Numbered from the stretch's first letter, positions 5,830 through 44,040 are shown. The stretch: DNA of 64,000 nt from Lama guanicoe (GCA_013239625.1 MU053645.1:1852274-1916273); one strand, 5' to 3'. Notes: generated by a model from the letters alone, not told the origin. Numbers and translations are program-made.

Positions 5830-8096
5830 ATATATAATAAGAGACCATGTATAATTATATACCAGTAAATTGGACAATCCAGAAGAAATGGATAAATTCC
5901 TAAAAACACACAACTACCAAGACTGAATCAAGGGGGAGGGTATAGCTCAAGTGGTAGAGTGCATGCTTAGCATGCAGAAGGTCCTGGGTTTAATCCCCAG
6001 CACCACCTCTAAAAATAAATAAACCTCATTATCTCCCCCACCTCTGCCAAAATAAAATAATTAAATAATACAATAATAAATAAATAAAACATTAAGAAAG
6101 ACTGAATCAAGAAGAGACAGAAAGCCTTAACATACCAATTAAAAAAAAGAGAGATTGAATCAATAATCAAAAAATTACCCAAAATGAAAAGCCCAGGACA
6201 AGAGGATATCACAGGTAATTCTACCAAATATTTTAAAAAGAATTAATATAAATTCTTATTAAATGCTTACAAAACTATAAGAAGAGGGAACATTTCTCCA
6301 CTTATTTATGAGGTCTGAATCACTGTGATAGCAAAATCAGACAAAGACATCAAAAGAGAAGAAAACTACAGGCCAACATTCCTGATGAATATGGATGCAA
6401 AATTTCTCAACAAAATATTAACAAACCAAATTCAGCACATTAAAAGGATCATACACCCTGATTAAGTGGGATTTTTCCTTAGGATGCAAGTATATTTAAT
6501 ATACACAAAGTAATTAATGTGATACATCACATTAATAGAATGAAGGATAAAAATCACATAATTATCTCAATAGTGCAGAATATTGAACTATCAAAATAAT
6601 GCAGAAAAAAGCATATGACAAAATTCATATGTATAGTTCATAGTAAAACAATTAATTAAGCATAGAAGGAACTTACCTCATCACAATAAAACACATATAT
6701 GAGAAGCCCACAAGTGACATCACACCCAATGGTGAGTGGTTGAAAGTTTCACCTCTGATCAGAAACAAGACAAGAGTTGCCTCTGATCAGAAACAAGACA
6801 AGAGTGGCCTCTACCACCATTCCTATTCAGAATAGTACTGAACACCCCTGCCACAGGATTAGGCGAGAAAAAGAAATAGATTCAAATTTGAAAATGAAGA
6901 TATGAATAGTCTCTGCAGATGACATGATCTTATATGTGGAAAACCACATAGCCTCCCTAAATAACCTGTTAAAACTAATAAATTCCACAAAGTTGCCAGT
7001 TACATACATTTTCCAACATACATTTTTCAGCATACATTTTCCAAAAATCAGTTATATTTCTATACACTAACAATGAACTATCTGAAAAGGAAATTGAGAA
7101 ACCAATTCCATTTACAATAGCATCAAAAAGAATAAAATATTTAGGAATAAACTTATCCAAGGAGGTGAAATAACTGGTATACTGAAAACTATAAAACACT
7201 GAGGAAAGAAATTAAAGCAAACACAAATAAATGACAAGACATCCTATGTTCATGGATTAGAAAATTTAATATTATTAAAATGTCTATACTATCTAAAATG
7301 ATCTACAGATTTAAAACTATTCCCATCAAAATACCAATGGCAATTTTCCTATACACAAAAAATGATAAAACAATCTTAAAATTCAAATGGAACCACAAAG
7401 GAATGCAAACAGCCAAAGCAATTTTGAGCAAGCAGAAAAAAAGCTAGAGGCATCACATGTGTTGATTTCAAAATATAATTACAAAGCTACAGTAATAAAA
7501 ACACTATGATATTGACATAAATACAAAAAGACCAATGGAAAAGAAGACAGCCCAGAATAAACATAAACATATATGGCCAATTGATCCTTGACATGGATAT
7601 CATGAATATACATTGGGGAAAGGATCTTTAATAAATGGTGTTTGGAAAACTAGATATCTACATGCAAAAGAATAAAATTGTACCCTTATCTCACACTATA
7701 CATAAACGTCAACTCAAACTAAGTTAAAGACTTAAACATAAGACCTGAAACTATAAAACTCATAGAAGAAAACAGGGGGAAAGCTTGACGCTGGCTTTGG
7801 CAATGATTTCTTGGAAATGAAACCAAGAACACAGGAACCCAAAGCAAAACACACAGTGGGATTACACGAAACCAAAAAGCTACTTCACAGCAAAGAAAAC
7901 AATTAACAAAATGAGAAGACAACTTATGGAATGGGAGAAACTATTTGCAAATAACATCTCTGACACTGGGTTAATCTTCAAAATATATAAGGAACTTCTA
8001 CAACTCAACAGCAAAAAAACCAAATAACCCAATTAAAAATTGGGCTAAGGACTTGAATAGACATTTCTCCAAAAAAGACATAGAAACAGCCAACAT
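5830..8096 (+). mobile_element. Decayed LINE-1 ORF2 (RT region to C-terminal part)
   Basis: Recognisable ORF2 text including GCAGATGACATGATC (YADD-motif region, ~6915); many stops and frameshifts. Confidence 0.88.
5933..6097 (+). mobile_element. tRNA-Ala-derived SINE (camelid Vic-1 type)
   Basis: GGGGAGGGTATAGCTCAAGTGGTAGAGTGCATGCTTAGCATGCAGAAGGTCCTGGGTTTAATCCCCAG head with pol III A/B boxes, AT-rich tail, 14-bp TSD AAGACTGAATCAAG (5919-5932 / 6098-6111). Confidence 0.88.
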
Positions 8097-9247
8097 ATTT
8101 CTGTACATTACTCTTGTATCCTGCTACCTTGCAGAATTCATTTATTCTAACAGCTTTTGTGTGGAGACTTTAGGGTTCTCTATATAGAGTATCACGTCAT
8201 CTTTCATAGTGACAGTTTTACCCCTTCCCTTCCAATGTTGATATCTTTAATTTCTTTTTCTTGTCTGACTGTTATGACTAGGACTTCTGATACTATGTTG
8301 AACACAAGTGGTGAGAGTGGGAATCCTTGTTTTGTTCCTGAATTTAATGGGAAGTCTTTCAGTTTTTCACCACTGAGTATTATGTTGGCTGTGGGTTTGT
8401 CATAAATGACTTTAATTATATTGGAGATATGTTCCCTCTATACCCTCTTTGGTTAGAGTTTTTATCATGAATTGATGTTGAATTTTACCAAATGCTTTTT
8501 CTGTGTCTACTGAAATGATCAAACAACCAAATCAAAAAATGTATAGAAGACCTAGACATTTTTCCAAAGAACATGTACAGATGGCCAATAGGCACAGGAA
8601 AAGCTGCTCAACACTGGTAATTATTAGAGAAATGCAAATCAAAACTATATGAAGTATCACCTCACACCAGGCAGAATGGCTATCATCAAATGTCTACAAA
8701 TAATAAATGCTGGAGAGGGTGGGGAGAAAAGGGAACTCTCCTACACTGTTGTTGGGAGTGTAAATTGGTGCAGCCACTATGAAAATAGTATGGAGAGTCC
8801 TTAAAAACCTAAAAATAGAGCTACCATATGATCTAGCAATCCTACTCTTGGGTGTATATCTGCAAAAAATGAAGACACTAATTTGAAAAGATACATGCAC
8901 CCCAGTGTTCACAGCAGCACTATTTACAATAGCCAAGAACAGGAAACAACCCAAATGCTCATCAACAGATGACTGGCTTAAGAAGATGTAGTATATATAT
9001 ACAATTGAATATTGCTCAGCCATAAAAAAGAATGAAATACTGTCATATGACTTTTATTCCTTTTCCTTGCCTAATTGTTTTTTTTTAACTGAAGTATAGT
9101 TAGTTAGGTTTACAATGTTGTGTTAATTTCTGGTGTACAGCTATTATGAATGCTGTAGTGAACATGAGAGAGTGCAGATATCTCTTTGAGATCCTGATTT
9201 CAGTTCCTTTGGACATGTACTCACTATACACACACACACACATATGT

Positions 9248-9285
<38 letters not shown>

Positions 9286-9751
9286 AATACTACTCAGCCA
9301 TAAAAAAGAATAAAATAATGCCATTTGCAGCAACATGGATGGACCTGAAGATTGTCACACTAAGTGAAGTAAGCCAGAAAGGGAAATAAAAATACCATGT
9401 GATATTACTTATATGTGGAATCTTAAAAAAAAAAGACATAAATGAACTTATTTACATAACAGAAACAGACTCACAAACATAGAGAATAAACTTATGGTTA
9501 CCAGAGGGGGAAGAGGGGGTTGGAGGGATAAATTGGGAGTTCGGGATTTGCAGATACTAACTACTATATATAAAATGGATGAACAGCATGGTCCTACTGT
9601 GTATCACAGGGAACCATATTCAATATCTGTAATAGCCTGTAATAGCCTGTAATGGAAAAGAATATATATATGTATAACTGAATCACTATGCTGTACACCA
9701 GAAATTAACACAACATTGTAAACCAATTAACTATACTTCAGTTAAAAAAAA
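8097..9751 (+). mobile_element. LINE-1 with inverted 5' segment and rearranged 3' part
   Basis: 8097-8520 is antisense ORF2. 8521-9045 and 9284-9751 are sense ORF2 end/3'UTR with a short poly(A) at ~9744-9751. Inverted inserts occupy 9046-9225. Confidence 0.75.
9228..9283. repeat. (CA)n-TATG-(TG)n compound microsatellite
   Basis: Directly visible; the two halves are mutually complementary. Confidence 0.95.
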
Positions 9752-10505
9752 TTAGGCAAGGAAAAGAAATAAAAGTCATACAAATTGGAAAGCAAGAAAT
9801 GAAACTATCTCTATCTGCTGATGAACAATCCTGTATATTAAAAAAAATCCAAAGAATCTACAAGAAAGCTACTAGAGCTAATACACCAATTCATCCACGT
9901 TACAGGGCATAACATCAACACAAAGAATAGTTGTGTTTCTATACGCCCACAATGAACAATCTGAAGGGAAATTAAAGAAGTAATTTCATTTACAATAGCA
10001 ACTAAATAAAATCTTTAGAAATTAATTGAAGGAAGGAGATGCTAGATTCATACTCTGGAAACTAAAAACATTACAGAAAGAAATTAAAGGAGAACTGAAT
10101 AGAAGTGAGAATCCCTATTTATGATTAGAAGACTTAATATTATTAAGATGGCAATACTTCCCATACTGATACACAGATTCAGATATCTCTAGGAAAATTC
10201 CAATGATCTTTTCTGAAGATATGGAAAAGGTAAACCTCAAAATCCCATGCAATGGCAAGGTTCCCCAAATAGCCAAAACAATCCTGAGATTGTGCTTTTC
10301 ATGTCATATCTAAGAAATCAAAATCCTGAAAAAGAACAGTTGGAAGCCTTACACTTCCCAACTTCAAAACTTACTACAAAATAACAGTAATTAAAACAGT
10401 ATGATACTAGCATAAGAATATACATATAGATTAATGGAATAGAATTGACTGTCCAGAAATAATCCTACACATCTATGGCCGATTCATTTTCCAGAATAGT
10501 GCCAA
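9752..10505 (+). mobile_element. Older LINE-1 ORF2, left half of the host of the 9.1-kb insertion
   Basis: ORF2 text ending ..GATTCATTTTCCAGAATAGTGCCAA, resuming collinearly at 19655 (GATCAGTCAATGGGGAAAGAAC). Confidence 0.85.
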
Positions 10506-11926
10506 AGAGTTACCTGTAAAAGACTGAAATTAGAACATTTTCTAACACCATACCAAAAATAAACTCAAAATGGATTAAAGACTTAAATGTAAGCCCAGAT
10601 ACCATAAAACTCCTAGAGGAAAACATAGGCAGAACACTCTTGGACATAAATCACAGCAATATATTTTTTGAACCAGCTCCTGGAGTAATGAAAATAAAAG
10701 CAAAAATAAACAAATGTGATCTAATTAAACTTAAAAGCTTTTGCACAGCTAAGGATACTATCAACAAAACGAAAAGACAACCTATAGAATGGGAGAAAAT
10801 ATTTGCCAATGATTTGACTGACAAGGGACTAACTTCCAAAATATACAAAGAGCTCATAGACCTTAATATAAAAAAAAGCAACCCTATCAAAAAATGGGCA
10901 GAAGACTCCAAAGACAGAGAGATGGCCAACAAGCACGTGAAAAGATGCTCAACACCACTAATTGTTAGAGAAATGCAAATCAAAACTACAATTGTTGTGG
11001 AGAATAGGTGCTTACCTCATGCAGGAAAGAATTCAAGAGCAAGCCATGGTAAAGTGAAAGCAAGTTTATTTAGAGAGATACACACTCCACAGACAGAGTA
11101 CAGTCTGTCTCACTCAGAAGGGAAAATGGCTTAGGAGATACACACTCCATAGGCAGAATGTGGGCCATCTCAGAAAGGTGAGAGGGAGAGAGACCAAGAA
11201 GTGTGGGCGTGTTTAGTTTAAAAGTAAAAGCAGATACACACTCCATAGAGTGCAGGCCATCTCAGAAGGCAAGAGAGAGTGACCACGAGGTGTGGAGTTG
11301 TTAGGTTTTATGGGCTCGGTAATTTCATATGCTAATGAGTAGGAGGATTATTCCAAATACTTTGGGGAAGGAGTGAAGATTTCCAGGAAATGCCCCCTCC
11401 ACCTACTTTTTGACATTTCATGGCCAGCCTAGGAACTGTCATGGTGCCTGTGGGTGTGCTTGAGACTCAAGGTCTACTGGAAGTTGAATCTGCTGCCATC
11501 TTGGTTCTGACCAGTTTGTCCTGTCCTCAATTACTGTGTCATTCCTTCAATGGTTATGCCCCCCTTCCTCCCACTTCACAATGATATATCACCTCACACC
11601 AGCTATAATGGCCATCTTTAAAAAGACTACAAATGATAAATGCTGGAGAGAGTGTGGAGAAAAAGGAACCCTCCTACACTGTTGGTGGGTATGTAAATTG
11701 GTGCAGCCACTATGGAGGACAGTATGGAGGTTACTTAAAAAATTAAAAATAGACTTACCATATGATCAGCAATCCCATTCCTGGACATATACCTGGAGAA
11801 AACTCTAATTCAAAAAGACACATGCACCCCAATGCTCATAGCAGCACTATTTACAATAGCCAAGACATGGAAACAACCCAAATGTCCATCAACAGATGAC
11901 TGGATGAAGAAGATGGGTATGTATAC
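10506..11926 (+). mobile_element. 5'-truncated younger LINE-1 ORF2 C-terminal segment (5' part of chimeric insert)
   Basis: ORF track 10640-11134 ([23 protein letters not shown]) and 11536-11808 ([22 protein letters not shown]) are L1 ORF2p C-terminal motifs; it stops abruptly at the LTR start. Confidence 0.9.
10993..11578 (-). mobile_element. Solo LTR, MER41-like (ERV1)
   Basis: TG..CA termini and 4-bp TSD CAAT (10989-10992 / 11579-11582). Minus-strand AATAAA (11065-11070) is followed by CTTGCTTTCACTTTAC..TGAATTCTTTC as in MER41. Three internal GATACACACTCCA repeats. Confidence 0.8.
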
Positions 11927-12412
11927 TATGAATGAAAAATACTGTAAGCCATACCAGTAAACAAAGAATGCTGAAGCCATCAAGCCACCAGATGCTGCTG
12001 CCACCCCCCATAGTGAGCTGTAGGTGCAAACAAGCTGGCAGCCCATCCTCTGCAGCCACTCACAGTGGTGCACTCTGAGGGGACTCAGAATCTGGAGAGA
12101 CAAGATACTGGCCCTAAATAGCTAGGTGTTTGTCAAAGGAATGATTTCAATGACCCCAGATGTTTGGTCCTTCCCATAAATAGAAAAGTGCTAAATTCTT
12201 TAACTTCAGATGTCTGGTTTTCTTTAACAGTACTCTTTAATGTTTTGACTAGCTGGTCTTTGTTGTAAAACTCCTATATATCCTGGCTCCTCCCCTACCT
12301 CTTTGGAGAAGTCCCTCAGAGCAATCTGAGAGGCTGTCATCCCAGCTCGAGTCCTCCCGCCAAATAAAACATAACTCTTAACTTTTAGGCTGCATATTTA
12401 TTTCAGTCGACA
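11927..12412 (+). mobile_element. ERV 5' LTR (complete U3-R-U5)
   Basis: Homologous to 19169-19616; TATA-like CCTATATATC (~12273), AATAAA 12363-12368, ends ..GTCGACA, followed by a PBS. Confidence 0.9.
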
Positions 12413-12416
12413 GTTT

Positions 12417-12433
12417 TGGCAACCACATGGGAC
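12417..12433 (+). promoter_or_regulatory. Primer-binding site, degenerate tRNA-Arg type
   Basis: TGGCAACCACATGGGAC starts 5 nt after the LTR end and resembles the Arg PBS TGGCGACCACGAAGGGAC used by ERV9-like class I ERVs. Confidence 0.65.
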
Positions 12434-12633
12434 CCAGAGCAGACTTCTCTCCTTCACCTGAACTCTACGAGTATCTGGAGCCTTGGTACCAGCAGAGGAC
12501 TCTTGGGCCCATCCGCCTCCTCGGAGAGTCCAGATGAATTTGGGTGAGTCTCTCCTGGTTCTAGGGTCTCCTGTTATTGGTTGATGATCCTAAGTTTTAT
12601 TTGGTGGTGTTAAAACTCCTCTCTGGAGGAGCA

Positions 12634-12870
12634 GGTTATCCTTGAAACTTAGTTTCAAGAAGAGGTACCTGGGTTACCCTCAGTGAAAGCCACTGGGAAG
12701 ATTTTTGCTCAGCTTAGACACTGAGCGGGTTATCCTCAGTAAGAACTACTGGGAAGGCGTTTGCTTAAGTAGGTTATCCTCAGTGATATTACTCAGTTTA
12801 GACACTGAGTGGTTTTATCCTCAGTTGAAAGCTGGGAAGACTTTGCTCAGTTAAAAATATATTGAGTAGG
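12634..12870 (+). repeat. Degenerate tandem repeats in the ERV leader
   Basis: About five copies of GGTTATCCTCAGT with recurring CTGGGAAG..TTTGCTCAG..TAGACACTGAG. Confidence 0.75.
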
Positions 12871-14357
12871 AAAAAAAAAAAACCACTAAATAGGGTTGGA
12901 CTGGGTAATTAGGGGGAAAACTGGCCTGTCATTTTTCCTTGAATTGGCAACCTTAATATTTTGTCAAAATAAAACTGAAATCTTATGAGAGCTGTTCGGC
13001 TCCAAAGATGGGACCCTCCTCCTGGCTGGCAAACGCTTTCTCAGGTGACTGAGAAACTTGCAGGAATGGTGGAGCAAAGACCTCATACCATGCAGCTGTC
13101 CCTGTAGGGAAACCCACTAGCGATTTTATTCTGACAAACCGACCTTAGAATGGGGAATAAAGCTTTCAAAACAAAAGAAAAAGAAATGACAGATTGCCAG
13201 CCTCCAACTAATACCCTAGCCAGGTTTATGTATGTGTAAAATTTACAAGTACTTACCTAATTGGGAATTAGAGAAAATCTTGCCCTGAAAATAACTAAGT
13301 GGAGGCTCTTTTACTGTGTATGCAGTTAAGTTAAAAAAAAAAAAAAGCCAGCCTGATAAAAACATCTTTTCAGAATTCTGACCTTTACAAAAACGAAAGG
13401 CCTTCTAGGAGGAACTTACATTTCTCTCCCTGAGGCTTTGAAATGTAAATATTTTATCTTTCTCTGGGTGTTTGTGTGTATGTGTGTCTGTATGTATTTA
13501 AAAAAAACAAACGTTTTTTTCCAATCCGAAAGGTACAAGTATGGTGTACATATGGCAGCCAAGCAAACAGATTGGGATTCTGAATGATTCTTTGATTGTA
13601 CCAATTCTCAGGCATTTTGCCATCTTAACCATTGTTGCATCAGCCTGGACCATGAAGACCTTTATTTTTTGGGGGGAGTAAACTTTTCAATCTAATTTAG
13701 GCGGCACTCCCCCCCACCCCCCGCCGTGGGAAAGCCTCTTTGTCTTATTGGTTTGCTATATATCTCACTTTAGGCCAAATCATGGATCCTTTAAATTGGA
13801 GAAACTTCTAAATTAGTAAAACTTTAGAGAGCTCTCATTATAAATAGCCGTTTTATTGGTACCTATAAGAATCAATCAATTTTAAAGGTGGAAAAAATAT
13901 ATATCTAATGGTTAAACTAAAAACACCCTTAGTTTAAAACAAGAAAAACCGGTTTGGAAAGACTTATTTGTGTTCTCCCCCTTCCCTCAATGGCTAAGTT
14001 TTAGGGATGCTAATAAAAATATTAAAATGTTAATTAGGTTGAGTAACTGGAAGAAAGACTGTAGAAAAAGTGTAAAGATTTTTTTTTTCTGAACAAGGAA
14101 AAAAAAAATTACAGGACTTATCCCAAATGGATAAACATTTTTCAGACGGTTATTTAAAATGGGATAAATAAAATGGATATTTTGGATTAAACAATGGATT
14201 AAAATACAAGGTTTTGATACTACACTATGAAAGGTTAAAAAGGCCAAAGGGACCCTCCCTACTGGTCCCCAAGTTAAAATTCAAACAACTCTGCTCTATT
14301 TACCCCAGTTTAAAATACATATATTTATAGGGCTGGAAAAAATGTACACTGAGATAC

Positions 14358-15702
14358 TGAAGGAGGATTAATAAAATGGCCGCACTTAGGCTAACAGATT
14401 GCTTATTCTTATGCTTGCCCTTAAAACAGTCAACTGACCCAACTGACCGGTTGCTACTCACAGCTCCAGGCCCGTTGTTAAAATAAAACTATTAATTTTA
14501 CTATTTCTCCTTTAATCCAGTAATTGAAAGTAATAATCATACTTGGTTTCTGAGTTGTTCTCCAGAGAGAAGGTCACAGAACTGTAACCTTGCAAAATGG
14601 CCTGAATTACCAAGAAGACCATGCCTTGGGCACTTATAAGGAAATCGAAAGAGCAACAAACACTAGCCTCTATAGAATTGGTCACCGGGCGACAGACACT
14701 ATGATGCCACTCTGAGTCTTTTTTTTAAAATATATTTTTATTGAAGTACAGTCAGTTTACAATGTTGTATCAATTTCTGGTGTACAGCATAATAGGGTGT
14801 AGAGAAAAGGGAACCCTCCTATACTGCTGGTGGGAATGTAGTTTGTTATGGAAAACAGTATGGAGATTCCTCAAAAAACTAAAAACAGACTTATCATATA
14901 ATCCAGCAATCCCACTTCCGCACATATACCTAGAGAAAACTGTAATTCAAAAAGACACATGCACCCCAATGTTCATAGCAGCATTATTTACAATAGCCAA
15001 GACATGGAAACAACCTAAATGTCCCTTGATAAAGAAGCTGTGGTATATATATATATACACTACTCAGCCATAAAAAATAATAAAATAATGCCATTTGAAG
15101 TAACATGGATGAACCTGGAAAATGTCATTCTAAGTGAAGTAAGCCAGAAAGAGAGAGAAAAATACCACAATATCACTTATATGTGGACTCTAAAAAAAAA
15201 AAAAAAATAAATGAACTTATTTACAAAACAGAAACAGACTCAAAGACATGGAAAACAAACACGGTTACCAAGGGGGAAGGGGGTGGGAAGGGATAAATTG
15301 GGAGTTTGAGATTTGCAGATACTAACTACTATATATAAAATAGATAAACAACAAGTTTCTTCTGTATAGCACAGGGAACTATATTCAATATCTTGTAGTA
15401 ACCTATGGTGAAGAATGAGAACAAATGTATGTAAGTCCCTAAGTGATTGAAGTATTATGCCACTCTGAGTCTTATGAGAAGAAAATAATTCTGCTGACGT
15501 TAGCAATGCTTTATTGTTTAAGCTATGGCTATATAATCACTCCAACCCATCCCCAAGATGAGTTCACAGTTTTGAAGGCACTAGCCTGCTGAGTCTCCTT
15601 TGCCCAGCAAAGCAATAAAGCTGCCTATTTTCTTCTAAGCTCCAAGACACTGTCTCTGAGTTACTTGGCTTGTCAGTAACAGGGACTGACCTTTTGGCAA
15701 CA
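14358..15702 (+). mobile_element. Solo LTR (~590 bp net) nested in the ERV, split by an L1
   Basis: TG..CA termini, 4-bp TSD ATAC (14354-14357 / 15703-15706), TATA-like CTATATAA (~15529) and AATAAA (~15614). Confidence 0.82.
14721..15456 (-). mobile_element. Young LINE-1 3' fragment with twin-priming inversion
   Basis: Perfect 17-bp TSD ATGCCACTCTGAGTCTT (14704-14720 / 15457-15473); poly(T) plus antisense 3' tip (14721-14792), then sense segment (14793-15456). Confidence 0.92.
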
Positions 15703-18700
15703 ATACTTGATCAACAAATGGGCAACAGCTAGACCAATTAATCAGATTTAAAGATTGACACAGGCCTGAGTCCCTTGGCTCAAACTCTTCTCTGGGGATC
15801 CCAGAGCCTTTTATATAAAATTAAATAAAATGGACAGGGAATAAAAGAAAAATGCTTCTAGGACTCCTTCTAAAATCAAAACTAAAATGAAAGGTATAAG
15901 AGTTTATAAAATTGAGATAAAAGTTTATAAAATTGGTATATTTAAATGGACTTTATATAAACTTTTGTTTAGTTATGTTGTGGGATATGTATGTTTCAAT
16001 GGGGAATGCTTCCCATGCTTGGTATTATAAGACTGGGCTCATAAATCTGCCCCTTGGGAAATATTAATTAAACACACTAAAGGAAACCAGTAGGGTTACC
16101 TGAGCTGTACAATATAAAGTAAAACTAAAAACTAATATTCAGGGGCTAATAAAAATAATGATAGAGATTTACTCTAGGCTTAACTTTAACTTAAGAAAGA
16201 GAGCCCTTGTTAATTGCCTTATGCAAGCCTTTGAAGACATGATAAATTAAACCCTAAAGTTTTAAAACATGGAACTCTTTGTTTGGAGGTCTTCTCACTG
16301 ATACAATGAAGCAAATTAAAATGATGCATTTGGACCTGGGTGACAAACCAGTTCTTTGGGGAACTGGAAGCAACTATCTTCATCTTGCAGATCAGAATGT
16401 AGATATGGCAGAGGATGACCTGAGACTGAGCCTAGTTGGCTTAATGAGGTAAAACTTAAGGCCAAAGAAATTTTTGGCATTTTAGAGCTCAAAACTCTGA
16501 CAGGTCCTTTAGACTTTGTCAAGAACAAATACAAATCTTAAAAAGTTTCTTCCATAAATAGTAAGCCTTAGTGATTTGAGCAAGCAAATTTAATTTATTC
16601 CAGCTGTTATTTATAAGCAGTAAATTTATATTGTAATACCTAATTCATAACTAAGTTTTAGAGTAAAGCTATGAGAGCTCAAGTTTTATGTTTATATGTC
16701 TGTGTACACATTATAGATTGAGATGTCTCTATTTTAAAAAATTATCAAAATTAATTTATAAAAGAGTCTATTTAATTGACTTAGAAGTAAGTGCTTACAA
16801 ATTAAATATTTCTAAAATAAAAACTGGCTAAATCGACTTTCAGGTTCACATGAACTGGGAAATATTCAATATTAAGTAAATACCTGGTATTTTTAGTTTG
16901 TTGATCTAATTAATATAGATATGTCTTTAGAGTCATCAATATTAAGTATAATAATTTTACTATACTTAGGTTTAATAAAAGTCAAATAAGATCTTGTTAT
17001 ATCTGTTGCAGATTTGTCAAAAAATAATAGGAATTTGGTGTGATAAAATTCTTATATGTAAATTAAATGCAAATGTGATAAGAGCTTTTGGGTTAACATT
17101 TTAAAAATAATTATATTTTAGGAATGTTTGCTTGAAATAATCTCTGCAAATATTTGGTATCTTAAAATTCTAGACTTGTGCTAAATTAAGTTAAGCGATG
17201 GGAGTTTATTAAATAACTAGGTCATTCCCAAGTAAAGTAAGATATTAAAACATTCATTACTAAACATTGGCTTCCTTTTACAGAGAAGCTAAAGGTATTT
17301 GGGATTATTGATAAATATGTTTGGTGCCACCCTAAGAGATTTTCTACAAGAAAGCACATGCTTTTAGAAATTATTATTGGTATTTACATTTGTCAATCTA
17401 CAAAATGCTAATGAAAAAGAGAGTTCATAATTGCTCATTTCCTAGTTTTCACTGGAAATTAAGGATTTTAAGAGTTAAGTGTTCTAATTTAAATATGTCA
17501 TTAAAGCTACCACAAATAATTTAAAAAACCATTTTGGTATACAGTAGAAAAATAGAGGGGTAAGTTTTCAGCAAAAGAAGGTATAAAAATTAAATTGCAT
17601 TTTGCTACTTAGAGTTGGTAGTTTCTAGATGGGAGAATTAAGGGATAAAATAATATGGATACAGAAAGTGATAAAAGGTTGTGGAGAAGGAATCCTGAGA
17701 AAAGAGTTTTGTGTATGGTCAGGATTGACTAAGTAAATGGATTTTTGTTTAAAAAAAAAGCTGGTACAAGACTGGGTTTTAATTCTCTATGTTAAGAAAA
17801 CAAAGTTTCTTGGAGTGCTACTTTTGATAACAGATTGTGTGAGTGTGCTTTAAGTGATTTGTGTCTGTTTTTGAAAACATTGTCACTTTGGTTGAGGAAA
17901 TAAGTATTGTTTCACAGTGACTTATGATTTTATCTGACCAAGTGTTTTGAAACTTTTTAACAAGCTTCCCAAAATATCAAATTTTGATTAAAGTTCTTTT
18001 GACCTCCAGCTAACTTTGGGATGCTTCAGAGGGCCCCTGAAACATCAAAAGAGAGATATTAAACTACTAGACTTATTTGGCATGTTAAATTACTTTAAAA
18101 AATTGTCAAGTGATTGGGGATAGAGCTTACGTTATATTGTAGAGATAAAAGCCACTAATGTAGTTATTCCAAAATTTGTATAAAATTCCTAAAAATCTAA
18201 TATGACTTGGTATGTTATAATTCTAATTATTATCTTAAAACATTGTCAGTCAGAAATATCCAAGTTGCTTGTCAATTGCATTATAATCAAATCTTTAACC
18301 ATGCAATTTTAAGTCTTGTCATTTAAATAAAGTCATTGTTTTACTCTAATGCTTTTATGAAATGAAGATCTTCATGAAGATTCATAAAAAAGAGACTTTT
18401 AAACAAAAAGTTCCTGATAACTTTTAGATCATACTACTGAACTGGGTAAATTACAAAACTAATGGAAACCTGATGACTTTATCCAGATAAACAGAAATTA
18501 ATTACATGGAACTGAATGAACTGATAAATATGATTTATTACCTTATGATTTTTGAGAAACATATTGGCCTTTACTCTATTTTCCAAAAAACCTTTCCTCT
18601 TATTCTATGACCTATAACAAGTTGATAAAGTATGCCTTTGTAAACAAGGATGAAACATTTATCATTTTCTCTCTATTTGATCCTTCCAGAATTTAACTTC

Positions 18701-19168
18701 CCCAGCTGGCTCCCTTGTGGACTTGATGGTTATTGCAACCAGATTACAAATAGTTATACTAAACATTATTTCAATTTGTTTGTGAATTGTTATACTTTTA
18801 TGACTTTATTGTTACTAACTGTATTACTTATTATATCTTATATGATTGTAACTCGGCCTCTGACAAGATGGCTAAACATCTTGAAAAAAATAGATCACAT
18901 TATAATCCTGCATAGAATAATTGTAATAGTGTGATTCTAGGGCATGAGCTATGAGGGAAAAACATTTCCTGGATCATAACAGACTAGCAAGGTGATCCAG
19001 AGAATTTTTGAGCATCAACAGAGCCTGATCCATAAATTAGCCATTTGATTGGCATGTCAACAGAATCTTCACCCAATCTAGGAATGAGCCTTCCTAGCAC
19101 CGTGAGACAAAATTGGTCGTGATATGTCTCCCAAAATATTGGTCGAATTTAGGACTAAGGGGAAGCAC

Positions 19169-19616
19169 TATGCACGAAAACTAATGCAAGCCATATCAGT
19201 AAACAAAGAATGCTGAAGCCATCAAGTCATCAGCTGCTGCTGCCACCCCCTACAGTGAAGATAAACAGGCAGTCCCTCTGCGGTCTGAAGTGACTCTGAA
19301 TGTGAAAGGACTGGATACTGGCCCTGGAGAGCTAGGTGCTTGTCAAAGGAATGATTTCAATGACCCCAGACATTTGCTCCTTCCCATACATAGAAAAGTG
19401 CTAAATTCTTTAACTTGAGATGTCTGGTTTTCTTTAGTTAACAAGTAATCTTTTAATGTTCCGACTACCTGGTCTTTGTTGTAAAAACTCCTATATATCC
19501 TGGCTCCTCCCCTAACTTTTTGGAGCTGTCCCTCAGAGCAACATGAGAGGCTATAATCCCAGGTTCAAAGGGGTTTGAGTCCTCAGAAATGTCCGCCAAA
19601 TAAAACATAACTCTCA
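19169..19616 (+). mobile_element. ERV 3' LTR lacking U5, followed by A-rich tail
   Basis: Matches the 5' LTR up to AATAAA(19599-19604)ACATAACTCTCA, then AAAAACCAAAACCAAACAAACAGAA replaces the 32-nt U5. Confidence 0.9.
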
Positions 19617-19654
19617 AAAAACCAAAACCAAACAAACAGAAAGAATAGTGCCAA

Positions 19655-20365
19655 GATCAGTCAATGGGGAAAGAACGGTCTTTTCAGAAAATTATGATAG
19701 GACAACTGAGTATCTACATGCAAAGGATGAATTTGGACCCTTAACTCATACGATACACAAAAATTAACTCAAAATGGATCAGTGACCTGAAAATCAGAGC
19801 TAAAACTATAAAACTCTTGGGAAAAAACATAGGTTGTCAATAGTTTCTTAGATATGACATGAAAAGCACAAGCTTCAAAAGAAAAAAATTAATTAGACTT
19901 CATCAAAATTAAAAATGTTTGTGCATCAAAGAACATTAACAAAAAAGTGAAATGACAACTGCAAGTCATGTATTTGATAAAGACCCAGTAACCAGGATAT
20001 ATAAAGAAATTCTACAACTCCCAAACAAATAAGCAAATCCAATTAAAAACAGGCAAAGTACTTAGACATTTCTTCAAGTAAATATACAGTGGCCAGCAAG
20101 TGTACAGGAAGATGATCAACATCAGTAGTCACTGACTAGGAAAATGCAAATGAAAACCACGAGATACCAACTAGGTATCACACCAACTAGGATGCCTTTA
20201 TCAATAATTTTTTTAAATGGAATTTAATAAGTGTTATTGAGAATATGGAGAAATTGGAAACTTTGTACATTGCTGGTGGACATGTAAAATGTTACAGTCA
20301 CTGTGGAAAACAGTTTGGCCATACCTTAGTAAGTTAAACATAGAATTACCATATGGCTCAGCATA
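19655..20365 (+). mobile_element. Older LINE-1 ORF2, right half of the host element
   Basis: Collinear continuation of 9752-10505 after the second TSD copy (19642-19654). Confidence 0.85.
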
Positions 20366-37518: not shown

Positions 37519-40500
37519 TTAATCATAATCATTTTTTGGGTCTACCCTGGGGTCATTTTTATCATCTGTTTTGCCTTGCAGTTTCTTAGCAAGTTCCTCA
37601 ACTTCATGGAATGCAGAAATAAGTGGCTCAAGACTGAAATCGTCATCAGTAAACAGCAATGCCTCTTTTTCAATGTTGTTACCAATATTCTCAAACATTG
37701 CTAGAACAACCTGAATATTGTCATTTGTCTCTTTCCTGTTAAAAAGGCCCATAAATTCTGACACTGCTTCAGCACTGAGCAGTTCTTTTGTCATGACAGG
37801 ATTTTCAGACAAATTCAGTAGTATTTTCAGAACATGAAACCTTGTTTTGGTATTGCCCATGGCTAATAAGAATAGAAACCCAGACATATACTTAGCAACC
37901 AGTGTGTGATAGTCAATAGTTGTAGTGAGGTGTCTAACCATCTTTATTCCAGATAACTGCTCAGGGGAATCCAAACTATACGCAAGGGTTTCTTCACATA
38001 CTTGACACACATATGTCTGAATCATGTTCAGATTTGGATAAGGTGGAGCCATGTGAATCATATTTTCCAAAAAACTTGTCCTAACACGGGAGGAGGGATA
38101 ATTGAGCAAGGTTTCAATAAGTGAGACAACACCTGAATCACGAATGAAATCGCGGGTAAATTGAGAAGCACTCCTCATACCCATTGCAATTTTAGATATT
38201 TCATGAATAAAAGGATCTCGAATTTTGTCCATTAACAGAAGGAGTTCTTCAAACTCTTCAGAACCAATTTTAAGCTCACATTGTATGCAGCTGCAGGACC
38301 AACTCTCAGGCTCTGCACTTTCTTTGGCCCTAAGATGCTCTCGAATTTCTGTGACTGACCGGTAGGATGGATCATACTGAAATGGGAACTCAGGGTCAGG
38401 CTGATCAGGCTGCAGCAAAGACTCCTGCTCTTCCCCTTCTGGGCTCGGTGCCATGTGCTTGGGCTTTCCTCCAAACATTTCAGAGAACAGAAATGCTGCT
38501 TCTTTTGGAAATCTAAAGGGGCTTGGGCATGGGAAGCCAACCCTACCCCATGGGCCAGGCTTGAACTGAACAGTAACCTCCTCCCAGCTCTGGGGCCTGC
38601 GTGAAGCATCAGGCTCCTGCTCAACCGAACACCTGGACCTGCAAATGGCCCTGTACACAGGGCTAGGATTTGATTCAAAATGGGCCTCATCTCCTGCCCA
38701 GAACCAGGACCCCACTATGGCCTCGTCCTCCTCAGCTGCTGTCCTGAACTCACAGTTGGTCCCATTACCAGTCTTGTTATTAGCCTCATTTTTAGCTCCA
38801 AACTGGGACCCAACAACTGCCCCTTCCTCATTTTTAGGCCTGGACTCAGAAGTAGCCACAGTTTTAGTGTCATCGATGGCCTTGTCTCCAGACCAGAACC
38901 AGGACTCAACAATCATCTCTTCATCTTCTCTTGGCTTAGACGCACATGTCTCAGCTTCTACACTGACTTCTTTTGCAGCCCAGAACCAGGATCCAAAAAT
39001 GGTTTCCTCTTCGGACTTCGATATGGTCTCTTCTATTGCCTGAGGTCCAACCTCTATAACATCTTCTTCAGCCCAAAACCAGGACCCAACAATGATTTCT
39101 TCCTCTCCAGGCCCATGCTTGGACTCAAAACTAGCCCCTGCCTCCAGTCTGGCCTCTTCTTCAGCCCAGAACCAGGACTCAATAGTGACTTCTTCCTCTT
39201 CAGCTTCTGGGCTGTATTTGCTGCAAATGCCAGTCTCCTTCCTAATGGCCTCTTCCCTGGTCCAGAACCAAGACCCAACAATAACTTCCTCTTCAGCTGC
39301 CAGCCTGTCTTCTTCTCTAGCTTTAGCTTCTGTTTCAAGCCTGTCCTCCTCCCTGGCCCAGAACCAAGAACCAATGTCTTCCTCTTCAGCATCTAGCCTG
39401 GATTCTTCTCTGTTTGGAGCCCCTATAATGGCTTTATCCCCTTTCCAGGACCAGGATGTGATCATGATCTCCTCCTTGCTAGGTGGCTTGGCTCCTTCAG
39501 TCCTATCATCTATACTGCCCTCTTCCACAGCCCAGAACCACGGCCCTACAATGGTCTCTGGCCTTGTGTATTTTCTGGACCAGAACCATGAATCAACAGT
39601 GTCCTGTTCCTCCTCTGGCCTAGACTTCCATCTGCATCCATTGGCAGAAAACACACAGGGATCTTCTGACCAGAAGCTAGAGTCATTATTGATCTCCTCA
39701 GCAGGTGTCATAAATTTGCATTGGGTATACTTCATACTGGCCTCTTCTGTGGTCCCAAACCAAGATGATATAATACCCTTTTCCTTGTCCTCCAGGCTAG
39801 ACTTGTTGCTGACTTCAGCCCCCACACAAGCTTCTACTCCAGCCCAGAACCATGACCCAATAATGGGCTCCTCCTCCTCAGTCCCTGGCATGGTGTCACA
39901 ACTGACTTCAGCCCCAGAATCCATCTGGGCCTGGTTTCCAGCCCAAAACCAGGACCCAAATATTGTCTCTTCTTCTGCTGCTGGCCTAGCCTCTTCTCCA
40001 AACTCAGCCTCTGTACTGATTTCTTCTCCAGCCCAGAACCAGGGACCAATCACCTCTTCTTCCTCAGACCCTGGCCTGGACCCACAGCTGGCCCCAATAC
40101 TAGCTTCCACACTGGCCTCATCGGTGACCCAAAACCAAGACCCAAAAATGGTCTCTTCCTCAGCCTCTGGATTGATTTCTTCATTAGCCCAGAAGCAGGA
40201 ACCAGCAATGACCTTTTCCTTATCATCTGTTGGCACAGATTTGGAAGTGTCCTCAGCCTCAGTTTCTACACTGGTCTTTCCTCCAGTTCCAAGCATAGAA
40301 TTGCCAATAGGCTCCTTCTCAGTCTTTGGTCTGAATTTACTTCTGGCCTCAGTCCCCATATTGGCTTCTTCATCAGTCCAGAACCAACTGCCAACAATGG
40401 ACTCATCCTCCACTTGAGAACAGGACTTGACACTGGCCCCACCCACTATGTTGGACTCTTCTGCAGCCCAGAACCAGGCCCCAGTGAGGAACTCTTCCTC

Positions 40501-41655
40501 TGACCTGGCTTCTCGCTTGGCCCTGGGTCTGGCCTTGATTTTGGCCTCTTCCTTTGCCATTGCTCTGGCCCTGACCTCTTTCTTGGACTTGGGCCTCAAT
40601 GAGTTATTAGTCTTCTCTCCAGGCCAGAACCAGGAATCTTTTTTGACTATATCTATAGACCCAGATATGAAATCAATGGAAGCTTCTCGCTTGGCCCTGT
40701 GCCTGGCCCTGACATTGGCCCCTTTCCTGGCTCTGGGTTTCGACCTGGATTTGGCCTCCTCCCCAGCCCAGAACCAGGACTTTACATTGTCCTCACATTC
40801 AGACTCAGAACTGGACTCAGAGACTTCTTTCTTGGACCTAAACCAGGACCTACTATTGGCCTCTTCCCTGGGCCTAGACCGGATACTGGACTTTTCTCTG
40901 GCCCAGTACCAGGATGTCTTAAGAGATTCATCCTCAGAACCAGAACTGGATACAATATAGAGCTCCCGACTGGTTTTGGGCCTAAACATGGCTTCTTCTT
41001 TGGCCATGTGCCTGGACCTAGTACTGGCCTTTACCCAGTCCCTAGGACGAAGCCTTGTACTGACCTCTTCTTCATTCCAGTACCAGGAACTCAAAGAGGA
41101 TCTATCCACCCATCTGAAATCACAATTTTGAGAGCTCTCTTTTCTGGATGTAGGTCTAGGATGGCACCAGGAGGCCATATTGGTCTCACCCTCTGACTCA
41201 AACAAAGGCTGAATTCCTGACTGGGACTTGACCTTGGTGCCAGGAAAGGACTCGGCATCCATATTGACCAGTTCCCTCTCCATAGACAAGGTCTTAGTGT
41301 TAGCAACTGAACCAGACTCTGTATTGACCAGTGGCCAGGCTATAGCATTGGTTTGGGATGTTCCTTCTGTCTTCAGAATTGCCTCAGCATCAAACTCAGT
41401 CCTGGCCCATAAATAGGTTTCATCCACAGACCTTGCCCCAGGTATTGCCTTAGCTTCAGTCTTAGGATGTGCCCCAGCCATAGACTTGGAGTCAGTTTTG
41501 GGCCTTGCCCCAGGCATTGCCTGGGCCTGGGTCCTAACTTTAGGTCTGACCACCATTGGGACTTCATTCTCTCTCTCAGCTCCACCCCCAACCTCTTCTC
41601 CAGGCTTCTTTTCACGCTTGGCCTGGGCGCTAGGCTCAACCTCAGCCCCAGTCAT
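37519..41655 (-). CDS. GPRASP1: G protein-coupled receptor-associated sorting protein 1 (GASP-1), 1378 aa, single coding exon
   Basis: Uninterrupted ORF starting MTGAEVEP (ATG 41655, A at -3). It has >20 acidic EEE-x-I-x-GSWFW 'GASP motif' repeats and a C-terminal armadillo-like domain ([42 protein letters not shown]). Length and repeat number distinguish it from GPRASP2. TAA at 37521-37519. Confidence 0.97.
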
Positions 41656-44040
41656 AGTACAAGTTACAAGGGAGGCCCCGTTAAACACTCCTATCCCAGT
41701 CTCAGTCTCTACCACAGATCTGTCACAGTACTGGATCTTCACACTCTAATCTTTCGATGATTCAGGTGATACAGTTGGAAACAAAAGTTAGTCAATCACC
41801 AGTCCAACAGGCAGTCAGCCTCCTTCCCAAGCCCAGCCTCAGCCAATATTGCAGACAGAGAGAAGAGGAAGCACAAGCAAGCTGGGGGAGGATGGATGGC
41901 TCCCGGGTGGGTGCAGACCTGTTGAGGGTGGTGGTCAGCCCCAAATCCCACACCACCAGAGCTGCCACTGGAGATCAATCTAGGAAGAGAGAATGACATG
42001 GGGCTTTGAGTCTCTTCCAATTGTGTCGCTCCACGCAAACACACACAGAGACTGGACCTTTAATGCTTAGTGGGACAGTTAGGTTATCAGAAGGTTTCTC
42101 TGCCACCCTCATTTTGCCCACATCCTTTACTCCCAGAGCTGCCACACTGCTTTGCCAGCTACAAAAGAGGTGTGAAAATGGTGGGAAAGTGTTTTGGTAA
42201 TGGGAGAGGCTGAGGAGCACCCAGACCAGACCCTAATCACTCCTGGACCTGTGTTGGTCTCCTCTAGACCACCCAAAGTGGTACCCACTCTCATACCAAC
42301 CTGTGCTGATGTGTCACAAGTTTTCCCTCCTTTCCTTGATTTCAGCAGTGTCTACAGCAGCCTGGAGGCTGTCCTGGGAACAAGTAAACACATAGGAGAG
42401 AATGGAACCTGACTGATAGATAGACAAACAGGAACTCTGACCACTGAGGCAAACATCTCTATTTCTGTTTAAGGCTCTAATTTGTCTAATGTTTCCTGTC
42501 TCCTGCCCTCTGCTCTCATGTCTCCCCCTCCCATTCACAGCCTAATCCACACCTACCCAGATATTCCTAATGTCTCCTGCCGGATATGAACAAGGGGTTC
42601 TGCTGCAATATGCCAATTTGGCAGAGAGCAAGAGAGGTGAAGGAGGCCTGCAATCACTTAAATCAAAGACACCTGCCATGATCTTACTCTGTAGCTGTCC
42701 CCTGCATTGTCCCTCTTCCCACAAACCTCCAGATTTGAATCAGTCTTCCTCTTTTCCTTCCTTGGAAAAGGGACCAACCTTAAAGCAGGCCTATGGAAAA
42801 ACAGACAAAAGGTAAGACAGTCAGGAAACAACCGTAGCAATTGAGCGCTTGGTGAACAGACCAACACCAGAGGTGTGTCCCAGTAATCTGTCTTTTAACA
42901 TTTAGAGTCCTGTTGGTAGAATACTCTTTTAATTGAGGCTCTCTGGATCTGGTTTCTGCGTAACTCCTCATTTTCACATCACTCTCTTCCTCTTGCTCCC
43001 TTCTCCAACTGTAAGGATTCATCACTTGGTGTTCACCTCCCTGGCCCTGCAAAACTTAAATTGAGGGAAGGGCGCCCGCATATTCTAGAAAACAGGTTGT
43101 GCAGTGGTACTTGCATTTAAGACTTAACCCTGACCCTCACCTCCCAGCCCATCTCTTCCACCCTCAATTTTGTGGAGATGAGGAAGGAAGGCAAGAGAAG
43201 TGTGTAGAAACCTGTTAGAGAAGGCAATTCTAGAAGGTATTCCCGGATGCCTTCTTGCTCTGGTCGCAGTCACCCCACCCCATTCGGGTCTCCAGTCAAT
43301 GGCTGCTGCCCACCCCCACCTCCCAACCCCACACACCTTCAGAAATACAGGCTCGTTTCCTGCTCTTCGTTTTTCTCAAGCCTCTCCACTACAGATGCAC
43401 CCCTTGGCCTGAAATCGCCAGACCTACCGCGCAGACAGGAGACTTTGGCATCAAAGAGGCGCCTGTGGGAAGGGACAGCACCCAGGACGCGGGACCCACA
43501 GGTCCCTTCCCAGAATCCGGGCCCCCGCACCCGCCCGCTCGGCCCCCAGCTCCGACCGCCACCCCAGCCCCGGCCCCGGCGGCCTCCCCGGGCGCCCCCA
43601 CCCCAGCTCCCCTCCGCCATGTCTCCCGCAGCAGCACCCCCACAGCCCTCTCCCGGCACAGACACCGTCGAGGGCGGGGCGCGGGCGCCCGGAAAGCTGA
43701 CCCGGGAGCCGCCGCGCCGTTCGCCTGCCAGGATCCCAGCCAGCGTCTGCGGCCAGACCCCGCGCCCCGGGTCCCGTCCGCGCCGGTCGCCGCCGCCTCA
43801 GCGCCAGGGGGCCCCCGGAGCTGCGCACCTCCCTCGGGGACCGGCTCCAGCCGCGTCGCCTCCCGCTCGCCAGGCTGCCGGGGTCCGCGGGGCAGGCTGT
43901 GAGCTGCTCGTCGCCCCCCACGACACCCCCACTTGCCTGCACAGGCTCAGGGCCCGGGTGGTCGGCCTGGCCCTCCGGTCGGAGCTCCTCACTCGGATTC
44001 CCACCGCTCTCCGTGCGCTCAGAATGGCAAAGAGGCGGCC
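41656..44040 (-). other. GPRASP1: GPRASP1 5'UTR region with several candidate non-coding exons
   Basis: Minus-strand splice signals give candidate exons ~44030-43937 (CAG|GCAAGT), 43211-43141 (CTAACAG| .. |GTGAGG) and 42373-42301. Further acceptors before 42790, 42158 and 41979; donor after 42557. Exact isoforms cannot be fixed from sequence. Confidence 0.5.

Follow-up and report, generated by a model that had tools for sequence, protein, structure and literature searches.

A 9,136-nt insert in a Lama guanicoe LINE-1 as the probable retrocopy of an L1-embedded endogenous retroviral element

The stretch of DNA analysed here, 64,000 nucleotides (nt) of the Lama guanicoe assembly (GCA_013239625.1 MU053645.1:1852274-1916273; hereafter the window), contains an older LINE-1 (L1) element that is interrupted by an insert of 9,136 nt lying between exact 13-bp direct duplications. 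The insert opens with a 5'-truncated piece of a younger L1, passes into an endogenous retrovirus (ERV) element, which we take to be of the ERV1 type, with a long terminal repeat (LTR) at either end, and closes with a decayed poly(A) tail (Table 1). We propose that this unit represents a single event of target-primed reverse transcription (TPRT), in which a read-through RNA from an L1-embedded ERV donor locus elsewhere would have been copied into the older L1, and we put the probability of this reading at roughly 0.75. The arrangement had been described before in a sequence-only reading of the same DNA, all coordinates of which hold.

Table 1. Features of the insert and of the L1 that carries it (positions counted from the first nucleotide of the window).
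Feature	Position	Strand	Remarks
Older host L1 (ORF2 region), left half	9750..10492	+	BLAST 66-74% to other old L1 copies; colinear with right half
Left target-site duplication, 13 bp	10493..10505	+	exact repeat; top-strand site CC/AGAA, pyrimidine/purine step
Younger L1 ORF2 fragment, 5'-truncated, part 1	10506..10992	+	open frame from 10520
Nested solo LTR, antisense	10993..11578	-	TG...CA, 4-bp duplication CAAT, AATAAA near 3' end
Younger L1 ORF2 fragment, part 2	11583..11926	+	includes cysteine-rich motif; stops about 45 codons before ORF2 end
Complete 5' LTR	11927..12412	+	U3 with TATA-like box at about 12272, AATAAA at 12363, 32-nt U5, CA end
Primer-binding-site-like TGG stretch	12417..12434	+	follows GTTT after the 5' LTR CA (12412)
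AT-rich internal region, no detectable gag/pol/env	12417..19168	+	purine tract 19157-19165
Nested solo LTR, sense	14358..15702	+	4-bp duplication ATAC, own AATAAA at 15614
Nested 5'-inverted (twin-primed) L1 in sense solo LTR	14721..15456	-	perfect 17-bp duplication 14704-14720 / 15457-15473
3' LTR, U3-R only	19169..19616	+	AATAAA at 19599; CA end 12 nt past hexamer; no U5
Decayed poly(A) tail	19617..19641	+	18/25 A
Right target-site duplication, 13 bp	19642..19654	+	exact repeat of left duplication
Older host L1, right half	19655..20360	+	BLAST; colinear with left half

Two exact copies of the target-site duplication (TSD), AGAATAGTGCCAA, and no more are present in the window (10493-10505 and 19642-19654), and the match extends neither way; for any one site, the chance of meeting this 13-mer is about 3e-8. 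When the insert and one copy of the TSD were cut out of the host L1 in silico, the rejoined element aligned with the L1 copy at 60.9-61.4 kb through the site and free of gaps, and a single site-spanning alignment was obtained with three further copies too (4/4 tested, 70-74% identity). The colinearity of the host across the site rules out a duplication arisen by chance, and the perfect TSD in an older L1 that had been claimed is thus borne out. Its length lies within the 5-20 bp range of L1 insertions, it surrounds the whole unit and the poly(A) tail is found inside it. These features show L1 TPRT, and the non-canonical target site may fit it, yet the younger L1 alone would also have produced them.

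The host L1 also carries a 31-nt inverted duplication (10287-10317 and 19844-19874, 30/31 identical), the arms of which would be about 380 nt apart without the insert, and which has the look of a repair insertion made from a template. It was not used for dating (P=0.036 for 1 mismatch in 44 pooled sites), having been found through its near-identity.

The younger L1 piece (10506-11926) is 82-88% identical to five younger L1 copies in the window and 70% identical to the right half of the host, which excludes that it is a duplicate of the host L1. About 0.83 kb of upstream L1 sequence is kept in the insert, and the switch from L1 to LTR falls at 11926/11927, at the first bases of the LTR, as integration would leave it. 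Past this junction about 460 nt of young L1 3' end would be expected; they are absent, and no remnant of them was found between the 3' LTR and the tail. Inside the insert, long matches to the missing L1 3' end come only from the separate nested L1 (14.7-15.5 kb), which cannot be the missing end, as it has its own 17-bp TSD and an inverted tail within a solo LTR. The 5' end of the insert L1 lies, in L1 coordinates, 50-57 nt downstream of the homologous break in the host L1 (5/5 reference copies). A role of homology to the host L1 in cDNA ending or 5' joining is hinted at by this offset and would fit TPRT and in-situ models equally.

The two LTRs differ in a manner that is central to our interpretation. 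The 5' LTR has its U3, which is homologous to that of the 3' LTR from the first bases on, the exact LTR start being uncertain by 2-4 nt, with LTR-LTR homology beginning at 11925/19167. At the other end, the T/G-rich stretch of 32 nt that makes up U5 of the 5' LTR (12381-12412) has no counterpart in the 3' LTR. The position of the 3' LTR end fits poly(A) cleavage, 12 nt past AATAAA and with T/G-rich U5 as the sequence that follows in the 5' LTR, where TA and not CA is read at the equivalent position. The sequence-only reading had listed a complete 5' LTR, primer site, internal region, purine tract and 3' LTR, the latter ending in CA at 19616 without U5 and followed by a decayed A-tail; it had also noted the missing remainder of the younger L1 and that no short TSD follows the 3' LTR. 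This layout was confirmed in each of these respects, as was the age class of the 5'-truncated L1.

Over 421 aligned sites the LTRs show 47 differences (Kimura two-parameter distance, K2P, 0.122, 12%) and 11 gaps, a divergence comparable to the 12-18% spread among the young L1 copies. In the central U3 (12017-12128 vs 19259-19340) gaps are clustered and one 50-nt window holds 12 mismatches (24%), against 2-6 elsewhere, which suggests two LTR subfamilies or gene conversion. The R regions differ as well, by 11- and 8-nt gaps. The differences as a whole can be age plus later conversion, or can reflect a mosaic donor. At a typical mammalian rate of about 2e-9 per year, 0.122 would correspond to about 30 million years (My). 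With the rate of 2.5e-8 per 5-year generation that is given in a paper on Camelus transposable elements (PMC8605555), the figure would be about 12 My.

The element between the LTRs appears to be devoid of genes. No Pfam family was found in 6/6 frames (stops read as X), in a search of limited sensitivity, as the nested L1 piece equally gave no match; ten selected open reading frames (ORFs) gave three weak Pfam matches, all below threshold, a tRNA scan gave 0 matches and Rfam a single chance match. The primer site is presumably of the tRNA-Arg type, and two stubs, one starting with MG near 13150 and the other hydrophobic (18644-18934), are, in our judgement, like the ends of gag and env. Where an intact provirus would be recognized by its genes, complete LTRs and short duplication, we found no gag, pol or env matches, an incomplete 3' LTR and no 4-6 bp TSD after it. 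The description of the insert as a nearly whole provirus therefore stands for layout and fails for coding content, and the element is best called a non-autonomous, non-coding ERV1-type element. Large clusters of non-coding ERV1 elements are noted for alpaca in the Camelus survey (PMC8605555).

Two solo LTRs and one further L1 are nested in the insert, which produces four nesting levels, with a twin-primed L1 in a solo LTR in the ERV in the L1s. Their removal leaves a core of about 7.2 kb (9136-590-1349), in agreement with the length proposed before.

In the remainder of the window, young L1 fragments, some of them inverted, are stacked at 8095-9760, directly upstream of the older host L1. An intact ORF of 1,378 amino acids (aa) at 37522-41655 on the minus strand, lying in the interval 37519-41745, encodes GPRASP1, 98% identical to the dromedary protein over residues 1-450; at full length it differs by 3 residues from two alpaca entries, by 20-24 from four Camelus entries and by 27 from one further entry. 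Based on this comparison, and on GPRASP1 being an X-linked gene, as we take it to be, the insert locus is placed near GPRASP1 on a South American camelid X chromosome. The SWFW repeats of GPRASP1 account for window repeat families D3 and D5.

A single-RNA origin of the insert is favoured because the 3' LTR ends at the place that its poly(A) signal would set, with U5 and the whole L1 3' end missing. On this reading the retained U3 and upstream L1 require transcription that started upstream of the 5' LTR. In the course of events that we envisage, a normal integration would have placed an ERV1-type element in a young L1, about 460 nt short of the L1 3' end. Transcription from upstream, be it from the L1's own or any upstream promoter, would then have passed the poly(A) signal of the 5' LTR, with the transcript cleaved in the 3' LTR. 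L1 proteins, most likely those of another L1, would have nicked the old X-chromosome L1 and copied at least 7.2 kb. The outcome has the anatomy described above, with TSD, A-tail and 5'-truncated L1 and without U5 and L1 3' end. Two solo LTRs and another L1 are nested in it, in an order that is partly a matter of inference: the sense solo LTR, which carries its own AATAAA, probably arrived after the retrocopy, and for the antisense one either order is conceivable.

The proposal that an upstream-started L1 RNA was copied by TPRT is therefore upheld in part: a one-event TPRT fits best, with a close precedent in mouse, but the L1 need not have supplied promoter or enzyme, as its 5' end is missing and its ORF2 is cut. 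Mobilization in trans appears more likely because ORF2 lacks its last 45 or so codons, which belong to the C-terminal segment; TPRT is reduced when this segment of 209 aa is deleted as a whole (PMC10830416). By analogy with 5' transduction, the L1 piece may be a passive donor flank that was carried along.

Several observations speak against a read-through retrocopy and have to be set beside those that favour it. No donor, sibling or empty allele was seen in the 64-kb window or in the collections searched, and the required RNA must have bypassed the 5' LTR poly(A) site, which is where the mouse precedent stopped. The target site CC/AGAA differs from canonical TT/AAAA, the pyrimidine/purine pattern being kept; off-target L1 nicks at pyrimidine-purine steps have been described (PMC10830416), and the site does not separate a read-through retrocopy from in-situ models. 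In favour of the retrocopy, the TSD is perfect at 13/13 positions vs 47/421 differences in the LTR pair, a timing support that is weak, with P=0.21 if both are equally old. Five of the 11 LTR gaps fall within about 60 nt of U3, and the element may on this account be a mosaic. Finally, both ends of the ERV show a short likeness to the L1 sequence that they replaced. On the left, the first 50 nt of the 3' LTR were scored against the post-junction sequence of two L1 copies, and the patch was equalled by 5/630 and 28/630 control windows and by 50 and 166 of 2000 shuffles (P ~0.01-0.08); in 2/7 L1 pieces no site matched the start of the 3' LTR better than the junction. On the right, the LTR end has TCAA in common with young-L1 3' ends, and ATAACTC with one of the six L1 ends examined. 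Weak as these signals are, they keep repair-type and template-switch models alive; likeness of this kind is what repair models predict.

In one rival model the locus was built up in situ: a young L1 would have inserted by itself, bringing TSD and tail, an ERV would have integrated into it, and a deletion of about 500 nt would then have removed U5, the 4-bp TSD and the L1 3' end, so that R came to adjoin the tail of that L1. Every component of this history is common, the locus did take several nested insertions, the TSD and tail are what the L1 alone would give, and the 4-nt TCAA match would suit a deletion between LTR and L1 end. We nevertheless consider it unlikely, as one breakpoint of the deletion must fall in the poly(A) cleavage window and the other in a tail of about 25 nt, with no L1 3' remnant left, and CA followed by As is the normal product of cleavage and polyadenylation. 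Moreover, a TSD that predates an LTR pair 12% diverged would have stayed perfect, an argument that is weak for the P value given above. A capture by repair, in which ERV cDNA joins a resident young L1 with one normal end while its other end loses 32 nt and joins the L1 tail by short homology, the L1 3' end being deleted in the same event, would explain why both ERV ends resemble the replaced L1 and would cost the cDNA no more than those 32 nt. Retroviral integration that is uncoordinated, with loss of ends and deletions in the host, has been described (PMC2857682). Such events are rare, however, the left patch is weak, with the best site in only two of seven L1 pieces, and the end must still happen to fall at the poly(A) position and at the tail; we regard this possibility as very unlikely. 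Keeping in mind that the estimate is a rough one and a matter of judgement, a deletion or aberrant integration that hits both the poly(A) window and the tail seems to us 10-100 times less likely than a read-through retrocopy.

A chimera of two RNAs would dispense with a donor for the junction altogether. Here the template would have switched within one TPRT, from ERV RNA to L1 RNA or between ERV RNAs of two LTR subfamilies. Chimeric L1 retrocopies are a known class, and both the homology patch at the junction and the clustered LTR gaps, with the 12 mismatches in one 50-nt U3 window vs 2-6 in others, would be accommodated. On the other hand, ERV genomic RNA lacks the 5' U3 that the insert retains, a switch within 4 nt of the first base of the LTR would be a large coincidence, and the gaps by which the R regions differ are not given by a simple R-to-R jump. 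With a K2P of 0.122, in line with the range seen for young L1 copies, most of the divergence can be put down to age alone, and a two-RNA origin appears quite unlikely. Cumulatively, we interpret these data to be most consistent with a read-through RNA copied in one event.

As far as tested, the insert is dead, ancient and single copy. With respect to a composite family, no second copy of the insert was found in the 64-kb window. Scans for LTR motifs gave 1 and 0 loci in viral contigs, 0 and 7 in metagenomes and 1 in prokaryote genomes, and we discarded all nine as chance matches, since none (0/9) had BLAST similarity to the window. When the antisense ORF across the LTR-L1 junction served as a protein probe, none of 52 candidates passed, and among the best 150 of 10,086 HMMER matches all were L1 antisense ORFs and none extended over the LTR-coded part; the ORF across the junction of L1 and nested LTR gave 0/9. 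These protein searches say nothing about orthologues. The full-text literature, a scope outside which most subscription papers fall, yielded no L1-moved ERV that keeps 5' U3 and internal region, and none in camelids. We regard it as unlikely that an L1-embedded ERV1 was copied repeatedly in early camelids as an active composite with an intact 5' LTR promoter and an SVA-like, integrase-free spread. In such an active composite, the LTR of each copy could drive its transcription, with the RNA ending at the poly(A) signal that was kept, and the product could be recopied.

If a read-through origin is correct, L1 can move an ERV whole with its 5' promoter kept, unlike classical processed ERV copies, and the mobilization of ERV RNA by L1 would extend beyond HERV-W to a camelid ERV1-type element. 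Copies of this kind would pass for proviruses whose 3' LTR is damaged, and the dating of their LTR pair would yield the age of the donor and not of the locus. As a single dead, ancient copy with a precedent in mouse, the insert is a good fossil example, and not a new system unless siblings turn up.

Among known systems, the 3' end of the insert is closest to HERV-W processed pseudogenes, in which a U3-R 3' LTR, poly(A) and a TSD of 5-15 bp are combined with a start at R (Pavlicek 2002, as cited in PMC5016936 and PMC5537654). Both have a 3' LTR without U5, a poly(A) tail, a TSD and a length of several kb. In contrast to copies that start at R, the camelid insert keeps the 5' U3 and upstream L1; it also lacks detectable genes and lies at a target site other than TT/AAAA. 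It is therefore not a classical member of the HERV-W type, though its 3' end works like one. Copying of a long ERV by L1 is feasible, because about 25% of the catalogued HERV-W elements, proviruses and processed copies taken together, exceed 6.5 kb (PMC5016936). HERV-W is named as the only HERV group mobilized by L1 in a review (PMC5537654), and for New World monkey ERV-W no L1-processed copies are reported (PMC6995185).

The insert also resembles 5' transductions, in which an RNA initiated upstream carries flanking sequence, and it can be compared with SVA (PMC12593883, PMC12350158), an L1-mobilized composite with a 3' part derived from HERV-K env and LTR. SVA is multi-copy with a fixed structure, whereas the camelid insert is one known copy and its unit is a whole two-LTR element.

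The nearest precedent is the mouse Lama2dy-Pas mutation, where an L1MdTf with an IAP about 700 bp from its 3' end gave rise to an insertion polyadenylated in the IAP 5' LTR, the source being known (Gagnier et al. 2019, PMC6466679). As in mouse, the camelid copy would descend from an L1 with an ERV near its 3' end, and it shows the same anatomy, L1 leading directly into the LTR start and a stop at the poly(A) site of an LTR, with the 3' end of the L1 itself not carried over. The differences are that transcription in mouse went no further than the 5' LTR, so that only LTR sequence was moved, while the camelid insert adds the internal region and a second U3-R, and that the mouse L1 is nearly full length, while that of the insert is 5'-truncated with ORF2 cut before its end. 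Most likely, the insert shows the Lama2-type route, known from one case in mouse, carried on as far as the 3' LTR.

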